Both the position numbers and the translations under genes were made by a program. The notes below the pieces were generated by a model. The model did not search any database, was not told where the DNA came from, and saw only the letters and a program-made list of their open reading frames with translations. A stretch of DNA of 34,300 nt from a virus. Taxonomy: Duplodnaviria; Caudoviricetes. Location of the stretch: positions 1 through 34,300 of the IMG/VR virus record IMGVR_UViG_3300011337_000588; one strand, 5' to 3'. Shown here one piece after another: positions 1-32,614 of the stretch. Every line of letters starts with the position of its first letter. Position 1 is the stretch's first letter.

Positions 1-121
1 ATTTTCGTACCGCTGTAGTGATCGGAATGCCGGTGTTGTACGATTTATCTACGACGGCCACCTTGAGATACTCGGGTAGATTCGTTACGACTTGCGGCCT
101 GCTGGTGTAATGCCTTGCCAT
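1..121 (-). CDS. Partial small protein, possible ribbon-helix-helix (Arc/CopG-like) DNA-binding protein; runs off the window edge
   Basis: Not in the ORF track. Minus strand reads AAAGGA-N9-ATG(121), then MARHYTSRPQVVTNLPEYLKVAVVDKSYNTGIPITTAVRK...; the strand-LP-helix-G-helix pattern resembles RHH proteins. Confidence 0.4.
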   Translation of the reverse strand, partial: MARHYTSRPQVVTNLPEYLKVAVVDKSYNTGIPITTAVRK

Positions 122-138
122 TTTCGGGAGTCCTTTCA

Positions 139-591
139 ATGCTAAAAATTGACCGTGATCCTCAAAATCTATGCCCTTGGTTTGCTGAACGTTTTTCCAA
201 TGCCCTTGCGGAATGCCAATCCCTTGGTTTCCGGGTATCTCTTTTCGAAGGCTACAGATCGCCCGAGAGGCAACAGGAACTTTACAATCAGGGCCGGGTA
301 ACGCGGGGTAAGATCGTTACTTATGCAAGACCCTTTCAATCGTGGCATCAATTTGGCCTCGCCGCTGACATCGCGTATCGCACCCCGGACGGTCAGTGGA
401 CATGGGACGGGGATTTCATCCGACTCGCCCCGATATTTCAAAGTCACGGTCTGCAATGGTACGGCCCCGGTGATGCAGGCCATTACGAGTGCCCGGCCTC
501 GTCCCTCCAGTCCGCCAAAACCTTGCTCGATTCTGTTGGACTTGAGGGAGTTTGGTCGGACGCTCTTAAAAGGGAATCTCATCGAGTGTAG
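139..591 (+). CDS. M15-family (L-Ala-D-Glu-type) peptidase, probable endolysin
   Basis: Motifs EGYRSPERQQELYNQGR, SWHQFGLAADI (SxHxxGxAxD) and DAGHYE. GGGAG RBS precedes ATG at 139. Confidence 0.85.
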   Translation: MLKIDRDPQNLCPWFAERFSNALAECQSLGFRVSLFEGYRSPERQQELYNQGRVTRGKIVTYARPFQSWHQFGLAADIAYRTPDGQWTWDGDFIRLAPIFQSHGLQWYGPGDAGHYECPASSLQSAKTLLDSVGLEGVWSDALKRESHRV

Positions 592-946
592 CGGTCTGAT
601 CGCGAATAGCGGCAGACGGGTCCCCCAATGATCCTCTAGCGTCTTTTTTGTCGGTGCCGGATTCAGTTATCCCAAGTTTAAGAGCGATTTTGTCCCAAAC
701 AACGCTCTGCTTTTCACTGATTCGGCCAGAAATATTGAATTGTTCAATTAAACTGTGAAGAAAATTTTGTTCCCATGGCGTGGGATTCAAAGTTAAAGCC
801 TGTTCAGCGGTCGAGACACTAAAGCTCGCCAAGACATCATCATGCCAAGAGACATGAGACAGAGTATCGATATCGATTGTGCGGCCAGTGTAACTTGCCC
901 CGTCAATGGACCAAACGCCTTTAATGCGGTGTGTACGATTTTTCAT
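566..946 (-). CDS. Hypothetical phage protein with a WExxF...SxKQ motif and an SSB-like acidic tail (LDEIPF)
   Basis: TGGAGGGC RBS before ATG at 946; own putative promoter. Confidence 0.7.
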   Translation of the reverse strand: MKNRTHRIKGVWSIDGASYTGRTIDIDTLSHVSWHDDVLASFSVSTAEQALTLNPTPWEQNFLHSLIEQFNISGRISEKQSVVWDKIALKLGITESGTDKKDARGSLGDPSAAIRDQTATLDEIPF

Positions 947-973
947 GTTGCCCTCCATTTGCTGTTCAAAAGC

Positions 974-1001
974 AATATACACGGGTGATCGAAAAGCACA
1001 A
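974..1001 (-). promoter_or_regulatory. Putative sigma70 promoter for the 946..566 gene
   Basis: TTGTGC-N16-TATATT on the minus strand. Confidence 0.4.
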
Positions 1002-1019
1002 TAGATATTTGAATGATAC

Positions 1020-1048
1020 TTGTAATTTTGTTATCGGCGTGAAATAAT
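1020..1048 (+). promoter_or_regulatory. Putative sigma70 promoter of the sRNA
   Basis: TTGTAA(1020-1025)-N17-AATAAT(1043-1048), with extended -10 TG at 1040-1041. Confidence 0.6.
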
Positions 1049-1052
1049 TAAG

Positions 1053-1120
1053 GTCTTCTGTCGCCCTCCAAGCCAAGAAGGCAATGCCCCGATAGGAAAC
1101 TATTGGGGTGTTGTTTTTTT
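1053..1120 (+). ncRNA. Candidate trans-acting anti-Shine-Dalgarno sRNA (two hairpins)
   Basis: Stem GUCUUCU/AGAAGGC encloses a 16-nt loop containing GCCCUCCAAG, complementary to the early-gene RBS. Followed by a GAAA-loop terminator and U7; no ORF. Confidence 0.7.
1082..1120 (+). terminator. Intrinsic terminator of the sRNA
   Basis: CAATGCCCCGATAG-GAAA-CTATTGGGGTGTTG-T7; the G-U pairs work only on the + strand. Confidence 0.8.
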
Positions 1121-1134
1121 AAGCAAACAACAAA

Positions 1135-1314
1135 CTAACTGTTGGGATTATCGAGGTGCCTGCGAAAGTCGCCAAGACGTTCGGCGAATTCTTTCTTCCT
1201 CAACTTGTCGGCAATTTTGCGAGCGGCCTTGCGCTCTCGTTGGTCAAGTTTAAGACGCTTTGTTTTAGTTTTTACTTCCAAGTGAAGTCTCTCTCTAAAA
1301 TTAAGTAATGTCAT
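1135..1314 (-). CDS. Small Lys/Arg-rich hypothetical protein (start uncertain: ATG 1314 or TTG 1428)
   Basis: Helical basic C-terminus KRLKLDQRERKAARKIADKLRKKEFAER; weak RBS. Confidence 0.45.
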   Translation of the reverse strand: MTLLNFRERLHLEVKTKTKRLKLDQRERKAARKIADKLRKKEFAERLGDFRRHLDNPNS

Positions 1315-1386
1315 GACATACACCAGCAAGCCAAATATTGATATACCTTGCGGCCCCCGGTCTTTTATTTTATCCTCCCAATTATT

Positions 1387-1930
1387 GGAGTGGACCGCCG
1401 ACTCCTGCGACAAGAATATCGCGAACAATCGGCTCTAGTCCGGGGAAATTTCTGCCCGGTAATCAAGTCAGGCTGCCAACAGCCCCGGACCAGTAGTGTG
1501 ATTAGGATGCCAGTCCGATGTGAGCAACGGGGTAATCTATTAGTAAACCACCTCATGCCCTTCGGATGCTCCAAAGTTACACTGTAAATTTCTGTGCGAG
1601 TGTCTTGAGCGTAAGGGATACAGCATGGGTCGTGAGGTAATGGCTCACGAGTACCGATGCGGCCGTACTTAATTAGATTGCTACGGAATCCAACACGCGA
1701 GCGGTGGAGCAATGTTCCACTACAGTCGGAGTTTTACTCAGTACTACGAAGTGCCGAGCCTTGTGGCCGACAGTATCCCAAGCTCAAGAGACAAGAGCAG
1801 ATCTGGTGTGTCTTTACATGATGTCATGTTTAATCATGGCTCCCGTTGGTCGCTGGAAGGTTCTTCTACAGTAGACTGAGTATGTGTAAAGGCAGCAAGG
1901 CTATCAGTCAGGCCCCGGCCCCCCAAGGCG
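1387..1930. ncRNA. Candidate large structured RNA (or structured ssDNA element)
   Basis: Many perfect helices including long-range ones (1603-1610/1782-1789, 1615-1621/1773-1779, 1438-1445/1483-1490, 1630-1636/1644-1650); no convincing ORF. Confidence 0.45.
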
Positions 1931-1988
1931 GTTATGCTTGTGATGATGGTTAGGGGTTCTATTGCTAAAATATAATAGGGGGGTAAAC

Positions 1989-2444
1989 GTGAAAGATTAC
2001 TTCGTAGGGGTGGACCCCGGTAAGTCAGGCGGAATTGTCGTCTTGGATCATCAGGGAACTATTGTTGCGGCCTGTACGATGCCCGATCATGTTGGGGGAT
2101 TGATTGCAGTCGCTCGGCTCTATCAGAAGGCTCACTGGACAATTGAGAAGGTCGGTCCGGTATTTATGTCGTCGGCTAAGAGTGCTTTCACGTTCGGCTA
2201 TGGTGCCGGTCAGATTGAGGGAGTGCTGTCGGCTTTGGATATCAAGTTTGCCATGGTTCCACCAAAGAATTGGCAGAAGGCAATGCTCGAAGGGGTAGCG
2301 GGGGAATTACCACCAAAGGAGCGGGCATACCGATCGGCTTACCGTCTGTTTCCGGGGTTCCGGTGGCCGGTAGTAGGCAAGAAAGCCCATGACGGGATTG
2401 TGGACGCTGCCTTGATTGCAGCCTATGCCCTTAAAGGAGCGTAG
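1989..2444 (+). CDS. ruvC: RuvC-like Holliday junction resolvase
   Basis: VGVDPGKSGG, TIEKV, SAFTFGYGAG, VPPKNWQK and HDGIVDAALIA motifs; GTG start after GGGGG. Confidence 0.85.
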   Translation: MKDYFVGVDPGKSGGIVVLDHQGTIVAACTMPDHVGGLIAVARLYQKAHWTIEKVGPVFMSSAKSAFTFGYGAGQIEGVLSALDIKFAMVPPKNWQKAMLEGVAGELPPKERAYRSAYRLFPGFRWPVVGKKAHDGIVDAALIAAYALKGA

Positions 2445-2488
2445 AAGCCCCCACAGTGGCCGGGACAGCCACCGGGGGTATCTGGGTA

Positions 2489-2716
2489 TCATATGTTCAT
2501 CATGGGGGATTTACGGGCATCCAAGATCAACTTGATGGCTGACTTCAGGTCGATGTCCTCGATAAGACCGTATGGGTCGAGGTTACGCCTGCGGTTGGAG
2601 AATTGCCGGTCAAGGGTTGCCGCTAACATCTCAGCAGCTTCTACGATATCGGGAAGGGTGTCCTCAATCAGTGTAACCATGTCTGCCACCGTTTTCTGTG
2701 TATGATAATTGAGCAT
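2489..2716 (-). CDS. Hypothetical protein
   Basis: Start overlaps the stop of the upstream gene (TAATG). Confidence 0.6.
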   Translation of the reverse strand: MLNYHTQKTVADMVTLIEDTLPDIVEAAEMLAATLDRQFSNRRRNLDPYGLIEDIDLKSAIKLILDARKSPMMNI

Positions 2717-2895
2717 TAGTGTGTCGCTTCCGGGAAAAGAGTATACGCAAGATCGTCTGATATGAAGTGCCTGCCTGTTGGATCTTCACCAAAAAAGTGA
2801 CACGCAAGTTGGAAACGATCGTAGAACGTGTATGCGCTTGAATCCTCTCTCCAGATATACTCTCCACCCTCTGTCCTGATAGTAACTGAAACCAT
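2716..2895 (-). CDS. Small early-gene hypothetical protein
   Basis: Shared GCCTTGGAGGGC RBS before ATG 2895. Confidence 0.7.
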   Translation of the reverse strand: MVSVTIRTEGGEYIWREDSSAYTFYDRFQLACHFFGEDPTGRHFISDDLAYTLFPEATH

Positions 2896-2901
2896 TGTTT
2901 T

Positions 2902-2963
2902 GCCCTCCAAGGCTGTTATTTGCTGACATTGATTATAGTATTTGAATAGATATTAGGTGTCAA
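2902..2963 (-). promoter_or_regulatory. Early cassette promoter plus shared RBS leader
   Basis: TTGACA(2963-2958)-N17-TACTAT(2940-2935); GCCTTGGAGGGC at 2913-2902. Confidence 0.8.
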
Positions 2964-3147
2964 TGCCTGATTTGCGGTCGAAAGTCATAAATGAGAACCA
3001 TGAAGAACCCATGTAAAAATCATACTTAAGGATTCCCCATGCCTGTCGTTTCTCGCACCAGTTTAGAGAAAACTCGCCATCAGGATCGGCGTGTAAACGA
3101 GCCAAGCGATTAAATTCTAAAAGGATTGCTAACGATGGTGTAAGCAC
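2953..3147 (-). CDS. Small early-gene hypothetical protein
   Basis: GCCTTGGAGGGA RBS before GTG 3147. Confidence 0.65.
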   Translation of the reverse strand: MLTPSLAILLEFNRLARLHADPDGEFSLNWCEKRQAWGILKYDFYMGSSWFSFMTFDRKSGIDT

Positions 3148-3151
3148 GTTT

Positions 3152-3214
3152 CCCTCCAAGGCGTGCCGTTATTGGCTTGCGTCAATTACTATTTGAATAT
3201 AATATGCATGTCAA
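3152..3214 (-). promoter_or_regulatory. Early cassette promoter plus shared RBS leader
   Basis: TTGACA(3214-3209)-N17-TAGTAA; hairpin GCC-AATAAC-GGC; GCCTTGGAGGG at 3162-3152. Confidence 0.8.
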
Positions 3215-3235
3215 CAAATAATTTGGCGACAGGGT

Positions 3236-3260
3236 AAAAAAAAAGCCCCGGATGGGGCTT
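3236..3260 (-). terminator. Intrinsic terminator after ardC
   Basis: AAGCCCC-ATCC-GGGGCTT followed by a T-tract on the minus strand. Confidence 0.8.
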
Positions 3261-3265
3261 GGTGA

Positions 3266-4129
3266 CTAACCGGCAAGGCATCCATCTTTGGGGACCCTTT
3301 GCAGGGATACAAGTAACTCGCAGGCTTTTTGTGCCGCCGATGCTACCGATACCAAAGCCCTGCTATCTTTCTTGGCAGCGGCAAGCCATGACGACAGGTA
3401 AGCAGCAGAGTTTTTCATGGAATGAAATTCGGTGTTGGTCGCAGCGGCAAAGAAACAAGTAGCAAGCTCTGCGGTAAGCTCCTCAATAGCGTAGGCATGG
3501 GAACCAAAGCGGTTACCGAAGTCACGTTTTAAGCGTGATTCGTGACCTGTCCAGTGTGACGCTTCATGCACTAGGGTACTGAAATAGGCGGAATGACTAA
3601 CGAATGATGACGGGAGAGGTAAAGTCACAGCGTCAAAGCCGGGAGAGTAGTATGCTGTCGCGGTATCGGCGTGCGTTAGTTTCATGCCCTCAAAAAAGAA
3701 ACCGGGTTTAATCGGGCAAAGGGTAGTCGGCTCGATCACGTCCGGGGTATCGCAGGCGAGGGTAGTTTGATCAATGTTGAACACGGTATAGTAGCGGGCC
3801 ATGATAGACTTCTTATCCTCGCCCGCATCATTCTCGTATTCGTTGATCTTAAAGAAAATAATCGGGGTACCCTTGGAACCGGGAAGGACAGAGCCACCTT
3901 CAGCGGCAATTTGCTTGAACGTGCCCCAGAGGGGCGAACGAAAGCCCATTTTCGAGCGTTGGAAGGATAGGACAAGGTTATTGATCCCGTTGTAAGCACG
4001 TCCCGACAGGTTGACGGGCTTGCCGGATGCCCGAGCTGACTCGACAAGGTAATGTTCCCACTGGCCTGCACCTGATTCGAGAATCTCAATGATCTGCTTG
4101 GTAACGATCTCATATACGTCGATCTTCAT
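3266..4129 (-). CDS. ardC: ArdC-family antirestriction / ssDNA-binding protein
   Basis: N-terminal motifs YNGIN, WGTFKQ, GxKG and YYTVFNIDQ; C-terminal metallopeptidase-like HEASHWTGHESRLKR...YAIEELTAEL. Confidence 0.9.
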   Translation of the reverse strand: MKIDVYEIVTKQIIEILESGAGQWEHYLVESARASGKPVNLSGRAYNGINNLVLSFQRSKMGFRSPLWGTFKQIAAEGGSVLPGSKGTPIIFFKINEYENDAGEDKKSIMARYYTVFNIDQTTLACDTPDVIEPTTLCPIKPGFFFEGMKLTHADTATAYYSPGFDAVTLPLPSSFVSHSAYFSTLVHEASHWTGHESRLKRDFGNRFGSHAYAIEELTAELATCFFAAATNTEFHSMKNSAAYLSSWLAAAKKDSRALVSVASAAQKACELLVSLQRVPKDGCLAG

Positions 4130-4134
4130 TGTTT

Positions 4135-4194
4135 GCCCTCCAAGGCTGCCGTTAGTGGCAAGTAATTAGTATTTAATTGTGATAAGAGTGTCAA
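4135..4194 (-). promoter_or_regulatory. Early cassette promoter plus shared RBS leader (ardC)
   Basis: TTGACA(4194-4189)-N17-TACTAA; hairpin TGCC-ACTAAC-GGCA; GCCTTGGAGGGC at 4146-4135. Confidence 0.8.
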
Positions 4195-4208
4195 GGGGAA
4201 AAGTAGGC

Positions 4209-4233
4209 AAAAAAAAGCCCCCGAGAGGGGGGG
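4209..4233 (-). terminator. Intrinsic terminator
   Basis: CCCCC-TCTC-GGGGG-C-T8 on the minus strand. Confidence 0.75.
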
Positions 4234-4240
4234 ATGGTGG

Positions 4241-4474
4241 TTAGTCGCGAACAAAGAGCCATTGTCCTTTAACTAGAACGTAACAGCTACCGCTGTTGCC
4301 ATAAATGCAACAGTAAACGCGGTACTTTCGTTTATTGCCGTTGAAAATTAACATGTGGTCGGTCGGGACTTTCATGCCGTAACCCATTTTTGATTGTCCG
4401 CGTCGCCAAGGCGTGATGATGGGATTTTTGATCAAAGTGTAATTCTCGGCGTAAGTAATGAGTGTGTTGGTCAC
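4241..4474 (-). CDS. Small early-gene hypothetical protein (GYGxKxPT...YRVYCxxYxNSG)
   Basis: Shared RBS before GTG 4474; flanked by a promoter and a terminator. Confidence 0.75.
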   Translation of the reverse strand: MTNTLITYAENYTLIKNPIITPWRRGQSKMGYGMKVPTDHMLIFNGNKRKYRVYCCIYGNSGSCYVLVKGQWLFVRD

Positions 4475-4479
4475 AGTTT

Positions 4480-4542
4480 GCCCTCCAAGGCGTGTCACTA
4501 ATTGACGAACTAATTAGTAATTAAATATCCATTGGGTGTCAA
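4480..4542 (-). promoter_or_regulatory. Early cassette promoter plus shared RBS leader
   Basis: TTGACA(4542-4537)-N17-TACTAA; hairpin GTCA-ATTAG-TGAC; GCCTTGGAGGGC at 4491-4480. Confidence 0.8.
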
Positions 4543-4644
4543 CAAGAAAAAGCGGGCAAGTGAAAATATTGGGACATATATACTTAATTAATATATACTA
4601 TCAAAATAGGGTAATGAAATTAGAGAGTTAGAGGTGTACCACAG

Positions 4645-4914
4645 ATGATGTTACCAATTCTAGCGATTTTTGTCGTGTTTAGCTTAATTTCTTGTTGCTT
4701 TCTATCAGGGATTGTGTGTTGGGATTTAGTTGAGAGGCGAAAGGTGGGCATCTTGCTCGCGGATGCCCGGGCTGAAATGAACGCGATCGCGCTTGCTAGT
4801 AATGAGAATAGTCAATCACTTTCGGTAGCCGTTGGGGAATTGCAAGAGCGTGTGCAGTCTCACGAGCTGCGACTATCGGGTGGCATCAGCAAGTCTGCCG
4901 TAATACGCCAATGA
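4645..4914 (+). CDS. Small membrane protein (N-terminal TM helix plus coiled coil)
   Basis: GAGGTG RBS; hydrophobic first ~27 aa. Confidence 0.65.
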   Translation: MMLPILAIFVVFSLISCCFLSGIVCWDLVERRKVGILLADARAEMNAIALASNENSQSLSVAVGELQERVQSHELRLSGGISKSAVIRQ

Positions 4915-4999
4915 AGGCCTCAAACGTCGATTCTGAGAGCCTTAACCGCATGGCAAGGGGATAGCCTAGGCAAGGCCCTTTTGTGCGTTTATAAAGGTG

Positions 5000-5029
5000 T
5001 TGACATATAGTATTTAAATGTGATATGAT
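5000..5029 (+). promoter_or_regulatory. Promoter of the packaging/structural operon
   Basis: TTGACA-N18-TATGAT with TG extension. Confidence 0.65.
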
Positions 5030-22876: not shown

Positions 22877-24057
22877 TGGAACCAGTTGTTACAGCAATGT
22901 TAGCGGCTCAAGCCGTATCTGCCCTTGGTCAAATGTATACTTCAGAACAAGCAGCAGGTGCTTCTCGGGCGCGCCTTAATGAAATGAAACGTCAATTTGA
23001 AGCATTGGTTGTTCCTAATTCCGGCGTAACAATTGACAACGCTGGAACGATGGACCCTAAGTATATTGCTTCTCGCGTGGCTCCTACTCAGTACAATATG
23101 TCTAACCTGTCGCCAATGGTGTTTCAGGCGGTAGGTCAGTACAAGCCCGAAGCCTACCAGATGTTCTTGACGCTTCCCAACGCGCCATACATCACCACTG
23201 AGGCAGGCGAGACGGGTAAGGATGCACAGCTATCAGCCCTTACCAGACTGCAACAGATCGCTTCCGGGGAAACCCCAGACGCTAATTTGCAGGAACAACT
23301 CTTTAAGGTCAGGAACGCAGCCGATCAAGCTGGTCAGCAGAGGCAGGCGAGCATTCTGAGGGACTTCGAGCGGCGTCAAATGCTTGGCTCTGGCAGTCAG
23401 CAATTGGCTCAACTTCAGGCAGCGGGTGACGTTACCAACAGGCAGGCTCAGGGAGACATTGCGGCGGCGGCGGAAGGATACCGTAACCGCCTTGGTGCTC
23501 TTAGCGAATCCGCTCAACTTGGCGGGACGATTAAACAGCAGGAACGTCAATTCGCTGCTGGTAACGCTGATTTGATTAACGAGTACAACAGAAGGATGTC
23601 TACTAATTATCAAGACACGTTAAATAGAAATACGGCGCAGTCTAATCAGGCTCAGGTTATGAACCTGAACGCAGCTCAGGGGATTGCTAACCGCAATGTT
23701 GAGTCGCAGTACAGTACCGCTGACCGGAATCAAAGATACGGTAATGAGATGTTGGACGCGCAAAGGGGTCAGGAAATCGGCGAGCAGCAAAGATACCTTG
23801 GCAATAACCAGACGGGATACCAGAATCAGTTGTCTCGCCTTCAGGGTATGTACGGCATTTCTAACGCTCAAAATCAGCAAGACATGGGATATGCAGCGCA
23901 GCGGAATAGTCAGTATCAAGGGCTTGGTGACGCGGCAACAAAGTATGCATACTACGATGCTTTGAAAAACAGGGCTGCTACTCCAACTGTTAAACCAGCA
24001 CTTCCAGATATTGATGCTAGTTACCCAGATGATCCTTATTTCAAAACTATAGTTTGA
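22876..24057 (+). CDS. Putative DNA ejection (pilot) protein
   Basis: Q/A/N/G-rich helical protein with a hydrophobic N-terminus. Confidence 0.5.
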   Translation: MEPVVTAMLAAQAVSALGQMYTSEQAAGASRARLNEMKRQFEALVVPNSGVTIDNAGTMDPKYIASRVAPTQYNMSNLSPMVFQAVGQYKPEAYQMFLTLPNAPYITTEAGETGKDAQLSALTRLQQIASGETPDANLQEQLFKVRNAADQAGQQRQASILRDFERRQMLGSGSQQLAQLQAAGDVTNRQAQGDIAAAAEGYRNRLGALSESAQLGGTIKQQERQFAAGNADLINEYNRRMSTNYQDTLNRNTAQSNQAQVMNLNAAQGIANRNVESQYSTADRNQRYGNEMLDAQRGQEIGEQQRYLGNNQTGYQNQLSRLQGMYGISNAQNQQDMGYAAQRNSQYQGLGDAATKYAYYDALKNRAATPTVKPALPDIDASYPDDPYFKTIV

Positions 24058-24071
24058 AAAGAGAAATTCAA

Positions 24072-25622
24072 ATGGAATCTTTTTCTGAATATTTATCCGC
24101 GTTGAAACGATTTGCTGGCATTGGCGAAGATGGTGTTGCGCCCGTAGAGGGCATAGATCCAAATGCCCCCGCTTTGCCTCCAAAAATTTCTTACGACAAC
24201 GACGGAACGCAAAAACTCAAAATGCCTCCGATTCAAATTGATGGAAATCCTCCAGATTCTCGTTACATCCCGGCAAAAGATGCGCTTGGCAAAAATCCGG
24301 GAGATAACGCGCAACCATCGTATAATTTGGATGCTACGTTTAACAATTCTCCAGAAAGCGTAAAAACTCCATTTTCTGATTTATCGGAACCCAGAAACTA
24401 CAATCAAAAAAAAGTAATTGATCCAAGCAAAATTTCTCCAGACATCCCAGTGTCTCCTGCTGCTGCGGGAACTCAACCAGCTTCCGCTCCACTTCCAAGG
24501 CCGCAGCCAAAATATGCTCCTCCCGCAGACCCATATTTAGCAAAATTAGAAGAAGGCGCTGAAAGTCGGACGTTAAACCCTGAATCAGACAGTCAAATTG
24601 ATGAGCAACAACTTCTTAACGATTATTTAGTGGCTCTCAAAAACTCCAAAGATAACGAAGCTAAACTTGCAACAATGAATGAAACGGCTCTCGACAACTC
24701 ACGCCTTGCCATGCTCGGTGAAGGTCTTAGTGAGTCGGCCAGCAAAATGGGGAATCTCATGGGCAAACCCACGGGTTCTACAATGGCTGGCTTTGGCAAA
24801 GAGGCCGGGGCAATAGAGCAAAACAACGTAGATCAGTTGCGTAAAATATATGGTGGAGAAGGTCCACAGCTTCAATTAGCAAGAACAGCGCAAATTGCGC
24901 AGATGTTAGAGGGTATCAGATCAAGTAGAGCAAAATCAGCGCAGGACGCGGGGCGACTTGCAATTCCAAAGCCGGATGCAAACGACAAAGAAAAAGCTCT
25001 TAATGTAGCACAAACAAGAAATAGGGATTTTGCGGGACGCATGGCGGCAGCCGAAAAGGTAATGGAAGACTTAGAAGCTAAAGGTTACAAACCTAATACT
25101 TATCGTGCAATGGCTTCAAAATCGGTAAAATTACCTATTTTAGGAAAAGTTACTTCAAGTGCAGATGCTATTGCCTATGACCAAGCTCGTGACGAATGGA
25201 TTAATGCTTTAGCTAGAAAAGATTCAGGAGCAGCAATAAAAGATAGCGAATATGACAAATACGACAGCATTTATATGCCTCAAGGTTCTGACCCCGATTC
25301 AATGATTGCTCAAAGAAGAAATTCACGCAAAAAAATACAACAAAACACTGCAAATTCTACCGACGCAAATTTTGGATCACCAGCTCCTTTGATAACGGGA
25401 AGCGGCTCTGCAAAACCAACGCAATCCGCCCCAAGGTCACAGGCTGGGCAGGGCGGTGCTACCGTTGGCGGGATTCCGCAAAGACATCAAGGGAAAATAA
25501 TCTTCAAAGATACCGTTACTGGAGATGTGTATTCCGCCGATACAGAAGAAGAATTTAATGGAATGAACAATCAGGGAAACGCTAAACAAGGCGGCCAATC
25601 ACGATATGTGAGGATAAAATAA
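24072..25622 (+). CDS. Putative ejection protein
   Basis: YDQARDEWINALARKDSGAAI..SEY motif resembles podovirus injection proteins. Confidence 0.5.
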   Translation: MESFSEYLSALKRFAGIGEDGVAPVEGIDPNAPALPPKISYDNDGTQKLKMPPIQIDGNPPDSRYIPAKDALGKNPGDNAQPSYNLDATFNNSPESVKTPFSDLSEPRNYNQKKVIDPSKISPDIPVSPAAAGTQPASAPLPRPQPKYAPPADPYLAKLEEGAESRTLNPESDSQIDEQQLLNDYLVALKNSKDNEAKLATMNETALDNSRLAMLGEGLSESASKMGNLMGKPTGSTMAGFGKEAGAIEQNNVDQLRKIYGGEGPQLQLARTAQIAQMLEGIRSSRAKSAQDAGRLAIPKPDANDKEKALNVAQTRNRDFAGRMAAAEKVMEDLEAKGYKPNTYRAMASKSVKLPILGKVTSSADAIAYDQARDEWINALARKDSGAAIKDSEYDKYDSIYMPQGSDPDSMIAQRRNSRKKIQQNTANSTDANFGSPAPLITGSGSAKPTQSAPRSQAGQGGATVGGIPQRHQGKIIFKDTVTGDVYSADTEEEFNGMNNQGNAKQGGQSRYVRIK

Positions 25623-29498: not shown

Positions 29499-30299
29499 TT
29501 ATTCTACCGATCCCGCCACGATGTATCCAGCTTCCTCGCCAATTTTAGCGCAGCCAAACGGAACCAGTGAATAACCCTTATCGCCCCATTCTTCTCCCCA
29601 CGAATTAGCCATGATCCACTTGTCTTTGTCGGTCCACCCTACGAGTGTAACCATGTGATTTGTCGTCTTGCTCTTGCAGGCAGACGCCGGAAGCTCACCA
29701 GAGGTTCCGCCCCAACCATTGCCAGCGGCGACGGTCACGAATGAACTACCGTAATTATATATGGCGATTTTAATTTCTTCAGCCGTAGGCGACTTGTTAG
29801 CCGATCCAAGCAGCTTAACTTCAGCGGCCTTGGCATACTTGGGGGTTTTCTTACACTTCAGGTTAGACGCTTTGTACGGCCAGTGAGCCTCGTCGGTGAT
29901 CCCTGAGAGAAGGAAGTTAGCCGACTCCATGTAACCGCCGGAACACTTGGCGGCGTCCTTAGCGCAGGACACCATGTCTTGCTCGCTCAGGTCGAGAGGC
30001 TCGCCCTTTTGCTTGGACAGGTTAATTTCTAGGGCGCGAGTAGATGCAAAGGCCCAACATGAGCCGCAAGCTCCTTGGTCACGGATCGGCGGGTGCTTAA
30101 TAAATTTACGGGAATCATAATCAGCCGGAAGGTGATCGGCGGGAAGCTCTGCCATGGCATACTCAATCGGCTCGGCTGCTTTGGTGTGTCCCAAATATCC
30201 CGTAGCTTTGGGTCCGGCGATGGTGTCAATAACTTGGCGGTTATCACCCAAGGCAACGGTTGACGCCAAGAGCAAACAGAAAGACAGATATTTCAGCAT
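29499..30299 (-). CDS. Secreted papain-like (C1A) cysteine protease
   Basis: Signal peptide; QGACGSCWAF, NHMV and NSWG catalytic motifs; LSEQDMVSC. Confidence 0.92.
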   Translation of the reverse strand: MLKYLSFCLLLASTVALGDNRQVIDTIAGPKATGYLGHTKAAEPIEYAMAELPADHLPADYDSRKFIKHPPIRDQGACGSCWAFASTRALEINLSKQKGEPLDLSEQDMVSCAKDAAKCSGGYMESANFLLSGITDEAHWPYKASNLKCKKTPKYAKAAEVKLLGSANKSPTAEEIKIAIYNYGSSFVTVAAGNGWGGTSGELPASACKSKTTNHMVTLVGWTDKDKWIMANSWGEEWGDKGYSLVPFGCAKIGEEAGYIVAGSVE

Positions 30300-30555: not shown

Positions 30556-30978
30556 CTAATCCCCTTTAAGACGTTGTTTTAGCTGATACGTTCTAGCTAC
30601 AGCCTTGTCGGCGATACCTGAGTACAGTTGCCGGTCAGCCTCTCTAGGCAAATCCTTGCAGAGATCCTCTAAGGCAAGGATAAGCTCTCTCTCCATGGCA
30701 AGCATGGCCGACCACAGCTTGTCGTTTTCCTTGTCGGGAAGAACCATAACTAGGTCGGCGGCCTCGCCCCAATAGTTAAGGCTAAGGACATCTGCCCCGA
30801 AAAGGCCGATGAGCCTCTCGCTTGCGGCGTCCGCGTCAAGTTGTACGGCATCGTAAAAATTGGCGGCGGCCCCGTGATCGGAAAAGAAGGAACAACCAAC
30901 AACCTGATGATGGGTGTGAATGTAACCCATCTGGAGTGCCCGAAGTTTAACCACTATCTGGTATGCTTTAACTTTCAT
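30556..30978 (-). CDS. Dps/ferritin-like protein
   Basis: HTHHQVVG..FFSDH...FYD...AD...ERLIG follows the Dps ferroxidase helix pattern. Confidence 0.65.
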   Translation of the reverse strand: MKVKAYQIVVKLRALQMGYIHTHHQVVGCSFFSDHGAAANFYDAVQLDADAASERLIGLFGADVLSLNYWGEAADLVMVLPDKENDKLWSAMLAMERELILALEDLCKDLPREADRQLYSGIADKAVARTYQLKQRLKGD

Positions 30979-31445: not shown

Positions 31446-31682
31446 TTATCCATTTTCTTTCCCTTCGCCGGAACCGTTACCTCGACGCGTTCCTATGCCG
31501 TCGCCGTAACCATTTCCAACGACTTCGCCCCAACCGTAGCTGCCGCCTGCGCCAGAACCGGAACCGTGGCCGTTGCCGTTGCCGTGGTCGTAGCCAGAAC
31601 CGTCGCCGCCGCCGTAGCCGGTACCATCGAAGTAGTTAGAGCCGGAACCATCGCCAGTGCCTTTTCCGTAATCCTTATCCAT
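31446..31682 (-). CDS. Gly-rich protein 3 (78 aa)
   Basis: MDKDYGKG...; start lies within the ATGGATAA overlap. Confidence 0.65.
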   Translation of the reverse strand: MDKDYGKGTGDGSGSNYFDGTGYGGGDGSGYDHGNGNGHGSGSGAGGSYGWGEVVGNGYGDGIGTRRGNGSGEGKENG

Positions 31683-31896
31683 TCCCGCTCTCATCACAAT
31701 TGCCATAGCCGTAGTCGTTACCGAAATATGCGCCCTTACCTTCACCACAAAATTTTTCGCGAAGATTACCGCTTCCACAAGCGCATCCCATTCCATAATT
31801 ATTTAGTGATGAGGCCCCGTATCCAAATCCTTCTACAGATCCATAGCCAGTTATAACGCCGCTGCCGGTGCCGCAATACCTGTAATCTTTAACCAT
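31675..31896 (-). CDS. Gly-rich protein 2 (73 aa)
   Basis: MVKDYRYCG...; start lies within the ATGGTTAA overlap. Confidence 0.65.
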   Translation of the reverse strand: MVKDYRYCGTGSGVITGYGSVEGFGYGASSLNNYGMGCACGSGNLREKFCGEGKGAYFGNDYGYGNCDESGNG

Positions 31897-32125
31897 TCCC
31901 GTTTTCCTTGTGATTGCCGTAACCAGTACCGTACCCGGAACCGCTTTCGCAAAACCCGTAAGGAATCCCGTAACCGGAACCATGCCCACAATTTAATCCG
32001 GAACCGGAACCGTATCCGTTTCCATGTCCGTTATGTTTACGATTGCTGTCGCCTCGGCCATTTCCCATGCCAGTTTGGTCGCTGTTTCCGCATCCTGAAC
32101 TAAAACCGCAACCTAAGCCGACCAT
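31889..32125 (-). CDS. Gly-rich protein 1 (78 aa)
   Basis: GxG repeats; overlaps the 3' end of the upstream gene. Confidence 0.65.
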   Translation of the reverse strand: MVGLGCGFSSGCGNSDQTGMGNGRGDSNRKHNGHGNGYGSGSGLNCGHGSGYGIPYGFCESGSGYGTGYGNHKENGNG

Positions 32126-32454
32126 ACCGGAACCGAGTTAATTGATTTTCTTGCTTCTTCCGTTACTTGCAAAATTTCGCATACACCAAAAATTTCGTGA
32201 TCTTCCACAGCAACAGGGAACTTACACTCGCCCGGATTCTTAACGCCCTTTACGGAAAGCTCCGACAAGCTCGCGGCCCCGCTCCAGTACCAGAGACGGC
32301 GCGACGAATACATCAAGACAGTATTTCCTTTACGCTCGCCCAGTTCACCAAAGAACACGCCAGCCTCGGCGGAACGAACAATTACCCACGGGTGCTCGCT
32401 CTTTTCTTTTTCCGCGTGATACCGAACGCCGTTCACCAAAATGATGTCATCCAT
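32113..32454 (-). CDS. DUF6948-like phage protein
   Basis: VIVRS..AGVFFG...RRLWYWSGAASLSELS..GV...CKF; GAGGAG RBS before ATG 32454. Confidence 0.7.
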   Translation of the reverse strand: MDDIILVNGVRYHAEKEKSEHPWVIVRSAEAGVFFGELGERKGNTVLMYSSRRLWYWSGAASLSELSVKGVKNPGECKFPVAVEDHEIFGVCEILQVTEEARKSINSVPVWSA

Positions 32455-32455
32455 T

Positions 32456-32614
32456 TTATTTCTCCTCGGTCTGCAAGACGATTTCGCCGTCAAAGTAAAA
32501 TCCCGCACCGCGCAGGAACTCCGTAAACCTCTGCAAAACTTCGACCAAGTTGGATGCCTCGATTTGGGTTTCTGTTATGAAACTTTGTTCTTCTGCACAA
32601 AAAGTCATTTTCAT
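32456..32614 (-). CDS. Small hypothetical protein (FLRGAGF motif)
   Basis: GGAG RBS; ATGA overlap. Confidence 0.6.
   Translation of the reverse strand: MKMTFCAEEQSFITETQIEASNLVEVLQRFTEFLRGAGFYFDGEIVLQTEEK

Follow-up and report, generated by a model that had tools for sequence, protein, structure and literature searches.

The window analysed here is the whole of IMG/VR record IMGVR_UViG_3300011337_000588, a tailed-phage genome (Duplodnaviria; Caudoviricetes) of 34,300 bases that is 95% complete. Comparison of its open reading frames with PHROGs and Pfam recognized a terminase, a P22-like portal, RecT, ArdC, an M15 endolysin and a RuvC-like resolvase. Two related metagenomic contigs, L080 and L083, bridge the end of the window to its start across the ∼700 bases missing from the record, and in these contigs the missing stretch carries a Gam-like gene and a possible ribbon-helix-helix gene. 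Between 94 and 95% of sampled words of bases 1–5000 are present in river metagenomes. The nearest cultured phage is that of Silvanigrella aquatica, with which eight packaging and virion proteins are held in common. As these proteins share 27–38% identity, an assignment to the Oligoflexia is reasonable, and the host probably belongs to this group. The Silvanigrella phage record itself (CP017838.1) displays an apparent duplicated block (22920–25293 and 31982–34355), with three open reading frames of the same lengths and two identical tblastn matches, which is possibly an assembly artefact.

On the late strand, between the endolysin gene and ruvC and close to the anti-restriction gene ardC, lies a long stretch with extensive potential for base pairing (Table 1). 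A first-pass annotation had proposed a densely paired region and candidate large structured non-coding RNA at 1387–1930. The folded element is indeed found there, but it does not end at 1930: it continues to about 1960, leaving ∼30 nt to the start of ruvC, and its most conserved part, at 1937–1959, is the 3′ extreme of the element and falls outside the interval originally drawn. The remark that the reading frames of this region look unlike those of proteins was borne out. The frames at 1135–1428, 1348–1587 and 1365–1712 have no match in PHROGs or Pfam; no conserved open frame was found on either strand, with 4–16 stops per frame in each of six homologues; the longest frames are not common to the homologues, and insertions and deletions break frame in the alignment. 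No terminator-like site was detected on either strand in 1340–1960, nor between the 3′ end of the element and ruvC. The putative promoter is the best plus-strand site within 1300–1720, yet it scores below the threshold of the scanning tool. Promoter-like sites, all weak, end 5–9 nt before the 5′ end of the element in the window and in the homologues L002 and L085, that is, in three of four lineages. Metatranscriptome run X20 (share 0.06) has low depth and covers coding and non-coding parts alike, and provides no evidence of expression.

Table 1. Positions of genes, predicted RNA domains and motifs in the window
Feature	Position	Strand	Remarks
M15 endolysin	115–591		
Small-RNA candidate (∼70 nt)	1020–1121	+	promoter-like site 1020–1048, loop word GCCCTCCAAG 1063–1072, hairpin and T-run 1075–1121
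Predicted sigma-70-like promoter of the large RNA, weak	1350–1378	+	TTGCGG, 17 nt, TATCCT; putative
Large structured element, predicted RNA	1385–1960	+	∼575 nt (484–583 nt in homologues); six-locus alignment
5′ domain, predicted H-type pseudoknot	1387–1433	+	1387–1390/1402–1405 and 1397–1401/1429–1433, inner stem 1407–1411/1418–1422; replaced in L082 and L083
Hairpin 1440–1444/1455–1459, and stem 1467–1469/1488–1490 with hairpin 1471–1475/1480–1484	1440–1490	+	invariant GGG/CCC core in hairpin 1440–1444/1455–1459
Possible long-range partner of 1947–1952, unproven	1460–1465	+	pairs in 6/6 rows, one-sided changes only
Long covarying arm	1494–1584	+	1494–1502/1576–1584, 1506–1522/1559–1571, 1529–1532/1552–1555
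Multibranch domain	1603–1789	+	closed by 1603–1610/1782–1789 and 1615–1621/1773–1779
Hairpin-tip word CTTGTG	1760–1765	+	direct repeat of 1937–1942; predicted partner is the template DNA strand
3′ motif, near-invariant, containing a G-run; persistent RNA–DNA hybrid predicted to begin here	1937–1959	+	in 7/7 loci reaching it
A/T-rich stretch, A-run at 1967–1970; predicted RNA-to-DNA switch region	1961–1976	+	by analogy with ColE1
RuvC-like Holliday junction resolvase	1989–2444	+	phrog_1770, E 2.6e-29; next gene downstream of the element

Homologues of the element are few. A terminase scan led to L002, along which the element aligns over its full length (nhmmer E 4.6e-59), and a scan of JGI metagenomes with a RuvC alignment returned 12 loci. 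Five of these carry the element, which is complete in L080, L082, L083 and L085 and represented by its 3′ part only in L081. Four loci begin at or within ruvC and are uninformative about the element, and the remaining three, which are distant (31–41%), show no match to it, one of them having only 90 bases upstream. Wherever RuvC is at least 59% identical and upstream DNA is present, the element precedes ruvC (6/6 loci). In L082 a 180-aa gene (phrog_3704; 913–1455, plus strand) is inserted between the RNA and ruvC. The alignment used below consists of the window and the five full homologues; pairwise identity within it ranges from 46 to 91%, and the six sequences represent about four independent lineages. 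Relative to L080 the element is 89.6% identical, above the endolysin (86.8%) and ruvC (84.9%) genes and flanking segments (75–87%). The picture in L082 and L083 is very different: RuvC is 88–91% identical to that of the window and the flanks ∼78–83%, whereas the element is only 46–47% identical. Given this disparity between flanks and element, sequence comparison indicates that the element is exchanged as a module between relatives.

The element does not correspond to any catalogued RNA. An Rfam search at gathering thresholds, covering the window and 20 loci, gave no match to the element and excluded GOLLD and ROOL, the phage RNAs brought up in the first-pass annotation. At E values up to 10, positions 1000–2100 and six homologue loci gave only chance-level matches outside or across the element, and ARAGORN detected no tRNA or tmRNA in the window. 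The window, L083 and L085 RNAs had no blastn match among phages or plasmids, and short 3′ queries returned only matches at E 0.2–7. DNA-pattern scans of IMG/VR (59, 5, 6, 3 and 1 stretches) yielded the L002 contig as the only genuine hit, the rest being chance matches, as were all those from a scan of GTDB genomes (3 stretches). When IMG/VR was scanned for RuvC, the yields were 0 and 3 loci, and the RNA is present at one of these. A covariance model (R2) run over 34 sources recovered its six training sequences only. Antisense targets of at least 12 nt in the phage genome amount to one match each way, taken as chance. No description of the element was found in the literature: the candidates of Fremin 2023 (PMC10690425) are 29–151 nt long, and a motif search of the portion of its supplements that was covered gave no match, although pieces of the RNA may be listed there.

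Statistical evidence for a conserved structure is strong. The plus strand of 1380–1940 folds at −198.5 kcal/mol (z −2.67, with 3/100 shuffles as good) and the minus strand has z −3.89 (0/100 shuffles as good), while the 200-nt window 1601–1800 reaches −3.7 and −4.5 on the plus and minus strands, respectively; in the folding test called for in the first-pass annotation, the region is thus more stable than shuffles on both strands. RNAalifold applied to the six sequences predicts 88 pairs, 39 of them with two-sided changes. In the covariation test a consensus of 86 pairs was assessed, of which 39 show a two-sided change and 93.5% of cells pair, with a score of 0.528. None of 500 shuffles reaches any of these measures and slid controls score no higher than 0.096. 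As the 86-pair structure was drawn from the same alignment on which it was tested, the shuffled and slid controls are both tilted in its favour, but the margin over them is wide. The earlier description as a large structured non-coding RNA is supported by this covariation. The strand, which had been considered ambiguous, can now be assigned as plus: the alifold energy is −83.9 on the plus strand vs −65.3 on the minus strand, the folding z is lower on the plus strand in all five homologues, and G–U cells outnumber A–C cells by 42 to 9 in the plus fold as compared with 28 to 18 in the minus fold. In four runs of near relatives, read by hand, the substitutions fit the fold and include several changes to G–U. 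It can be held with high confidence that the element is a real, uncatalogued family of large structured RNAs belonging to a few uncultured phages.

The eight complementarities from which the original proposal was built are all present in the window, with the qualification that GGTGGAGC/GTTCCACT needs two G–U pairs and the suggested pseudoknot one bulged A. Their conservation differs considerably: five of the helices hold as drawn or in a shifted register and one is kept in four of the six rows. The outer helix of the multibranch domain, 1603–1610/1782–1789, persists in 6/6 rows with 7–8 of its 8 pairs, as does 1725–1729/1767–1771 (6/6). The inner closing helix 1615–1621/1773–1779 holds in 4/6 rows as aligned but forms only 3/7 pairs in L083 and L082. 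Hairpins 1630/1644 and 1703/1714 are complete in only two of the six rows as aligned; single-sequence folds of the other rows place a hairpin in the same slots. Helix 1387/1401 is kept in 4/6 rows, with a compensatory change in L002, and is replaced in L082 and L083. Two proposals did not survive comparison. Helix 1438/1483 retains 2–5 of its 8 pairs in the other five sequences and is broken by two changes in near relatives. The pseudoknot 1735/1871 occurs solely in the window and L080 (7/8 pairs), its 5′ strand being missing in the other four, and was dropped for a local hairpin, 1737–1744/1751–1758, in which a substitution seen in near relatives (1755 C>T) restores the single mispaired position and which forms 7/8 pairs in L080 with a two-sided change.

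In the resulting model, compensatory changes support both stems of the 5′ pseudoknot, and hand reading of three near relatives reveals the paired changes 1401+1429 and 1408+1421. Two-sided changes affect 5/9, 6/13 and 3/4 pairs of the successive stems of the long arm. The multibranch domain encloses stem 1623–1626/1657–1660, hairpin 1630–1650, a variable hairpin slot at 1703–1721 and stem 1725–1729/1767–1771, and its helices show two-sided changes in 5/8, 6/7, 2/4 and 3/5 pairs. Duplex prediction places 1460–1465/1947–1952 among the top four sites in five of the six sequences, never as the best. Two hairpin modules of the 3′ domain of the window RNA, 1830–1856 and 1863–1886, occupy the 1703–1721 slot in L083 (about 3809–3840) and L082 (about 728–755), respectively, showing that modules shift place within the RNA.

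The two longest invariant runs of the alignment, 1940–1951 (12 nt) and 1953–1959 (7 nt), both belong to the 3′ motif. This motif begins with a word that is also displayed at a hairpin tip of the multibranch domain. Each RNA contains between 96 and 178 pairs of directly repeated 5-mers, and a single site pair, in two overlapping registers, is common to all six sequences at homologous columns. The word at 1760–1765 and 1937–1942 is the same at both sites within each RNA and changes between RNAs: the window and L080 have TTGTG, L002 has CCGTG, and L085, L083 and L082 have CTGTG. The repeat is also present in L081. It is only 5–6 nt long, and about four independent lineages underlie its covariation. 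A Watson–Crick complement of the tip word is absent from the RNA in 4/6 sequences, and no RNA partner common to all six exists even when G–U pairs are allowed. Since a word cannot pair with its own copy and the six RNAs offer no partner in common, the natural partner of the tip would be the template DNA strand at 1937–1942.

This arrangement is reminiscent of plasmid origins at which a transcript primes replication, and a ColE1-like primer was tested because no replication protein had been recognized in the phage. It appears moderately probable that the element is transcribed on the plus strand and provides the RNA that primes replication of the phage DNA, much as ColE1 RNA II does for its plasmid. 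Among the options originally put forward (a novel large RNA, a regulatory leader or a structured origin), the origin, in the form of an RNA primer, is favoured, and a ROOL/GOLLD-like RNA and a leader are less so. In the proposed mechanism, host RNA polymerase would start near 1385 and the nascent RNA would fold and display the tip word. When polymerase reaches ∼1937, the tip would pair with the template strand exposed there, and the G-rich transcript of 1937–1959 would remain hybridized as an R-loop. RNase H would then cut the hybrid near the A-run at ∼1967–1970, DNA polymerase I would extend the primer and host primosome proteins would load onto the displaced strand. The RecT, Gam-like and RuvC proteins of the phage might handle subsequent recombination-dependent replication and the resolution of branches. 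Exchange of the RNA between relatives would be as expected of replicon modules.

The likeness to ColE1/pMB1 extends to a structured non-coding stretch of ∼550 nt behind a promoter-like site with no Rep gene recognized, a word in an internal loop that recurs shortly before the end, a G-run followed by an A-run, and an origin-proximal identity of 15/18. In ColE1 an upstream run of six Gs pairs with the template of a downstream run. The two G6 runs lie at about −269 and −22 (NC_001371.1), a spacing of about 247, whereas in the phage element the repeated word is YYGTG and its first copy lies 94–178 nt upstream. For the window, L080 and L085 RNAs (3/6), the best local match to ColE1 RNA II is the 3′ motif, 15/18, which in both molecules lies at the origin-proximal end. 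When the motif is expressed as a matrix, its best site falls at the origin-proximal place in ColE1 and in two divergent ColE1-like plasmids, with P 0.0056 within RNA II; over the entire plasmid P is 0.069, which is not significant, and equal or better scores are obtained by E. coli 23S rRNA (14.6) and a pAsa10 gene (14.9). Neither the origin of the Aeromonas plasmid pAsa10 nor the Pasteurella plasmid pB1005 yielded the motif. As ColE1 was considered after many RNA families, the match is post hoc and this resemblance of sequence is suggestive only; the co-varying repeat constitutes stronger, internal evidence. Colinear homology between the six RNAs and ColE1 RNA II was not detected (global z −0.75 to 0.8; best local p 0.075–0.76). 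In further contrast to ColE1, a small plasmid, the element resides in a tailed phage, neither RNA I nor Rop was found, and no conserved minus-strand promoter exists at a place fitting an antisense RNA I. The skew at four-fold sites is 0.09 vs 0.33 on either side of the element (p 0.028), with no clear switch, and this difference is not repeated in L002. There is a fair chance that the predicted RNA would act like ColE1 RNA II as portrayed in the available parts of the literature (PMC5043065, PMC8683028, PMC5935869, PMC3640518); on homology and on RNA I it falls outside that family.

RNA-primed origins have been described for ColE1-like plasmids, MRB plasmids and some mycobacteriophage prophages (PMC3035462, PMC8683028, PMC7157519). 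The length of the element, 484–583 nt, was counted in favour of a primer, as the accessible accounts give ∼550 nt for ColE1 RNA II (PMC5043065, PMC8683028) and at least 465 nt for the MRB RNA II of Vibrionaceae (PMC3035462). The MRB origin, compared here by its description only, resembles the element in RNA II length but has an overlapping antisense RNA I, which the same account describes as showing no similarity to that of ColE1 (PMC3035462); none was found for the element. The RNA-based prophage origins of the mycobacteriophages Alma, LadyBird and RedRock are likewise phage non-coding RNA regions of ∼400–500 bp that replace an initiator protein; as described, they adjoin parABS in temperate phages of actinobacteria (PMC7157519), whereas parAB was sought in the phage studied here and not found. 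A more ambitious proposition is doubtful: that these RNAs form a family of RNA-primed phage origins in which a re-programmable guide word sets its own R-loop start without a phage replication protein, that the RNA is swapped as an incompatibility module, that a small RNA silences early anti-defence genes via one leader, and that the 3′ motif was inherited from an ancestor shared with ColE1, beyond the plasmids of gamma-proteobacteria.

The replication genes of the phage and its relatives bear on the same question. No match to a primase, helicase, polymerase, initiator, integrase or reverse transcriptase was obtained among the phage reading frames tested, although several of them belong to no family and might conceal an initiator. 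The Silvanigrella phage harbours a primase and an integrase and lacks any sequence matching the RNA. In G064, a complete but distant relative, neither the primase family of the Silvanigrella phage nor the element is present, and mutual exclusion of primase and RNA is for this reason only loose.

A free-standing ornate phage RNA of the ROOL, GOLLD or OLE kind, which would fold, perhaps oligomerize, and act as a late scaffold or protein decoy, is the main rival to the primer and is considered unlikely. ROOL, GOLLD and OLE are similarly large, ornate RNAs of unknown function with variable linker regions, and the former two are phage-borne. Their Rfam accessions are presumably RF03087, RF02032 and RF01071, respectively. 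In size and multibranch fold the element is comparable to ROOL (659 nt) and OLE (577 nt), and in the available description the resemblance of all three to the element is one of size only (PMC12286853). Its place on the late strand between endolysin and ruvC and the variable slots, with short hairpin modules that change place between homologues, would also suit such an RNA. However, the element matches none of these families, or any other, in Rfam; ROOL and GOLLD lie near tRNA genes, of which, as of tmRNA genes, ARAGORN finds 0 in the window; and kissing loops need complementary words, whereas the sole co-varying word pair common to the six RNAs repeats one word in direct orientation and finds no common partner within the RNA. 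Imitation of ribosomal RNA, whereby copies of 16S hairpins soak up ribosomal proteins or rRNA-cutting defence nucleases, is highly improbable, a weak lead at most. Hairpin 1632–1648 is identical to a natural form of the 16S helix-11 tip (17/17), the L080 variant is identical to another natural form (17/17), a helix-11 model matches both hairpins (E 0.0012 and 0.002), 1828–1856 agrees with E. coli 16S positions 11–39 at 23/29, and the sum of the top three matches has p about 0.01 in the window. Against this, L002, L085 and L083 remain at chance level (p 0.12–0.92), nhmmer gives no match either way, 23S gives no signal, the matches are scattered rather than colinear and helix 11 was picked post hoc.

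Since covariation cannot separate RNA from single-stranded DNA and the plus transcript is only predicted, a structure at the DNA level may also be envisaged, a single-strand origin or promoter that folds when the plus strand is displaced and yields no functional transcript; the proximity of ardC is in keeping with it. The many conserved G–U pairs, the many-branched fold, promoter-like sites just before the 5′ end in 3/4 lineages and virion genes that point to a double-stranded DNA phage make this reading very unlikely. A cis-regulatory 5′ leader of ruvC or the late operon is of equally slight probability as rRNA imitation. The element does end ∼30 nt short of ruvC, shares its strand, has no intervening terminator and is upstream of ruvC in every informative locus; but another gene sits between the two in L082, RuvC proteins that agree at ∼90% follow RNAs that agree at only 46%, leaders are usually far shorter than 575 nt and no riboswitch family was matched. 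Least probable of all is a ribozyme or self-splicing intron (group I, group II or RNase P-like) or a guide RNA for the adjacent RuvC. Size, the pseudoknot, the neighbouring RuvC and a self-matching loop of the type also seen in guide-type RNAs are compatible with it, yet the homologues searched have no Rfam match at E up to 10, there is no reverse transcriptase, neither an interrupted gene on either side nor flanking exons are present, Rfam and ARAGORN recognize no catalytic-core or tRNA-like motif as expected of RNase P or tmRNA, and RuvC is an ordinary 151-aa resolvase that does not co-diverge with the RNA.

If the primer interpretation is true, it explains how genome copying starts in small tailed phages without recognizable replication genes, and the element may furnish a replication origin for vectors in a host group with few genetic tools, probably the Oligoflexia. 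According to the accessible part of one review, what triggers formation of the persistent hybrid in ColE1 is still speculative (PMC5043065). The natural variants in which loop word and DNA word change in step provide a ready-made compensatory-mutation test of pairing between loop and template. Even if the primer interpretation fails, an uncatalogued family of large structured RNAs with strong covariation stands.

Upstream of the large RNA, a candidate small RNA is kept in 6/6 loci (L080 3055–3124, L083 3413–3489, L082 326–407, L085 3385–3447 and L002 17–80, in addition to the window). Its loop carries the word GCC(C)TCCAAG, whose reverse complement forms a leader 3–5 nt before the starts of four minus-strand genes, which in the window lie at 950, 2902, 4135 (ardC) and 4480. 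The word occurs 8 times on the plus strand of the window and 0 times on the minus strand, and the copy in the small RNA is not followed by a start codon. Loop and leader change together between clades, with GGAGGGC in the window, L080, L082 and L083 and GGAGGC in L085 and L002. The small RNA may silence the early genes as a set; alternatively, the match reflects a plain preference for a strong Shine–Dalgarno sequence. Between the small and the large RNA, at 1135–1314 on the minus strand, the window and L080 hold a 59-aa basic open reading frame without family, which is missing from L002, L082, L083 and L085.

The contigs of relatives skip 2902–3152, 3258–4147 and 4146–4592. As several of the joints (window 2902, 3152 and 4146) fall at or beside leader repeats, the pattern suggests that the early genes, ardC included, are shuffled as cassettes. 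Elsewhere on the minus strand, the early cluster includes a Dps-like protein at 30556–30978 (NF052461, E 2.4e-6, falling well short of the cut-off) and, at 29499–30299, a peptidase of the papain family, and three short glycine-rich open reading frames with GxG-type repeats (31446–32125) come after the DUF6948 gene at 32113–32508.
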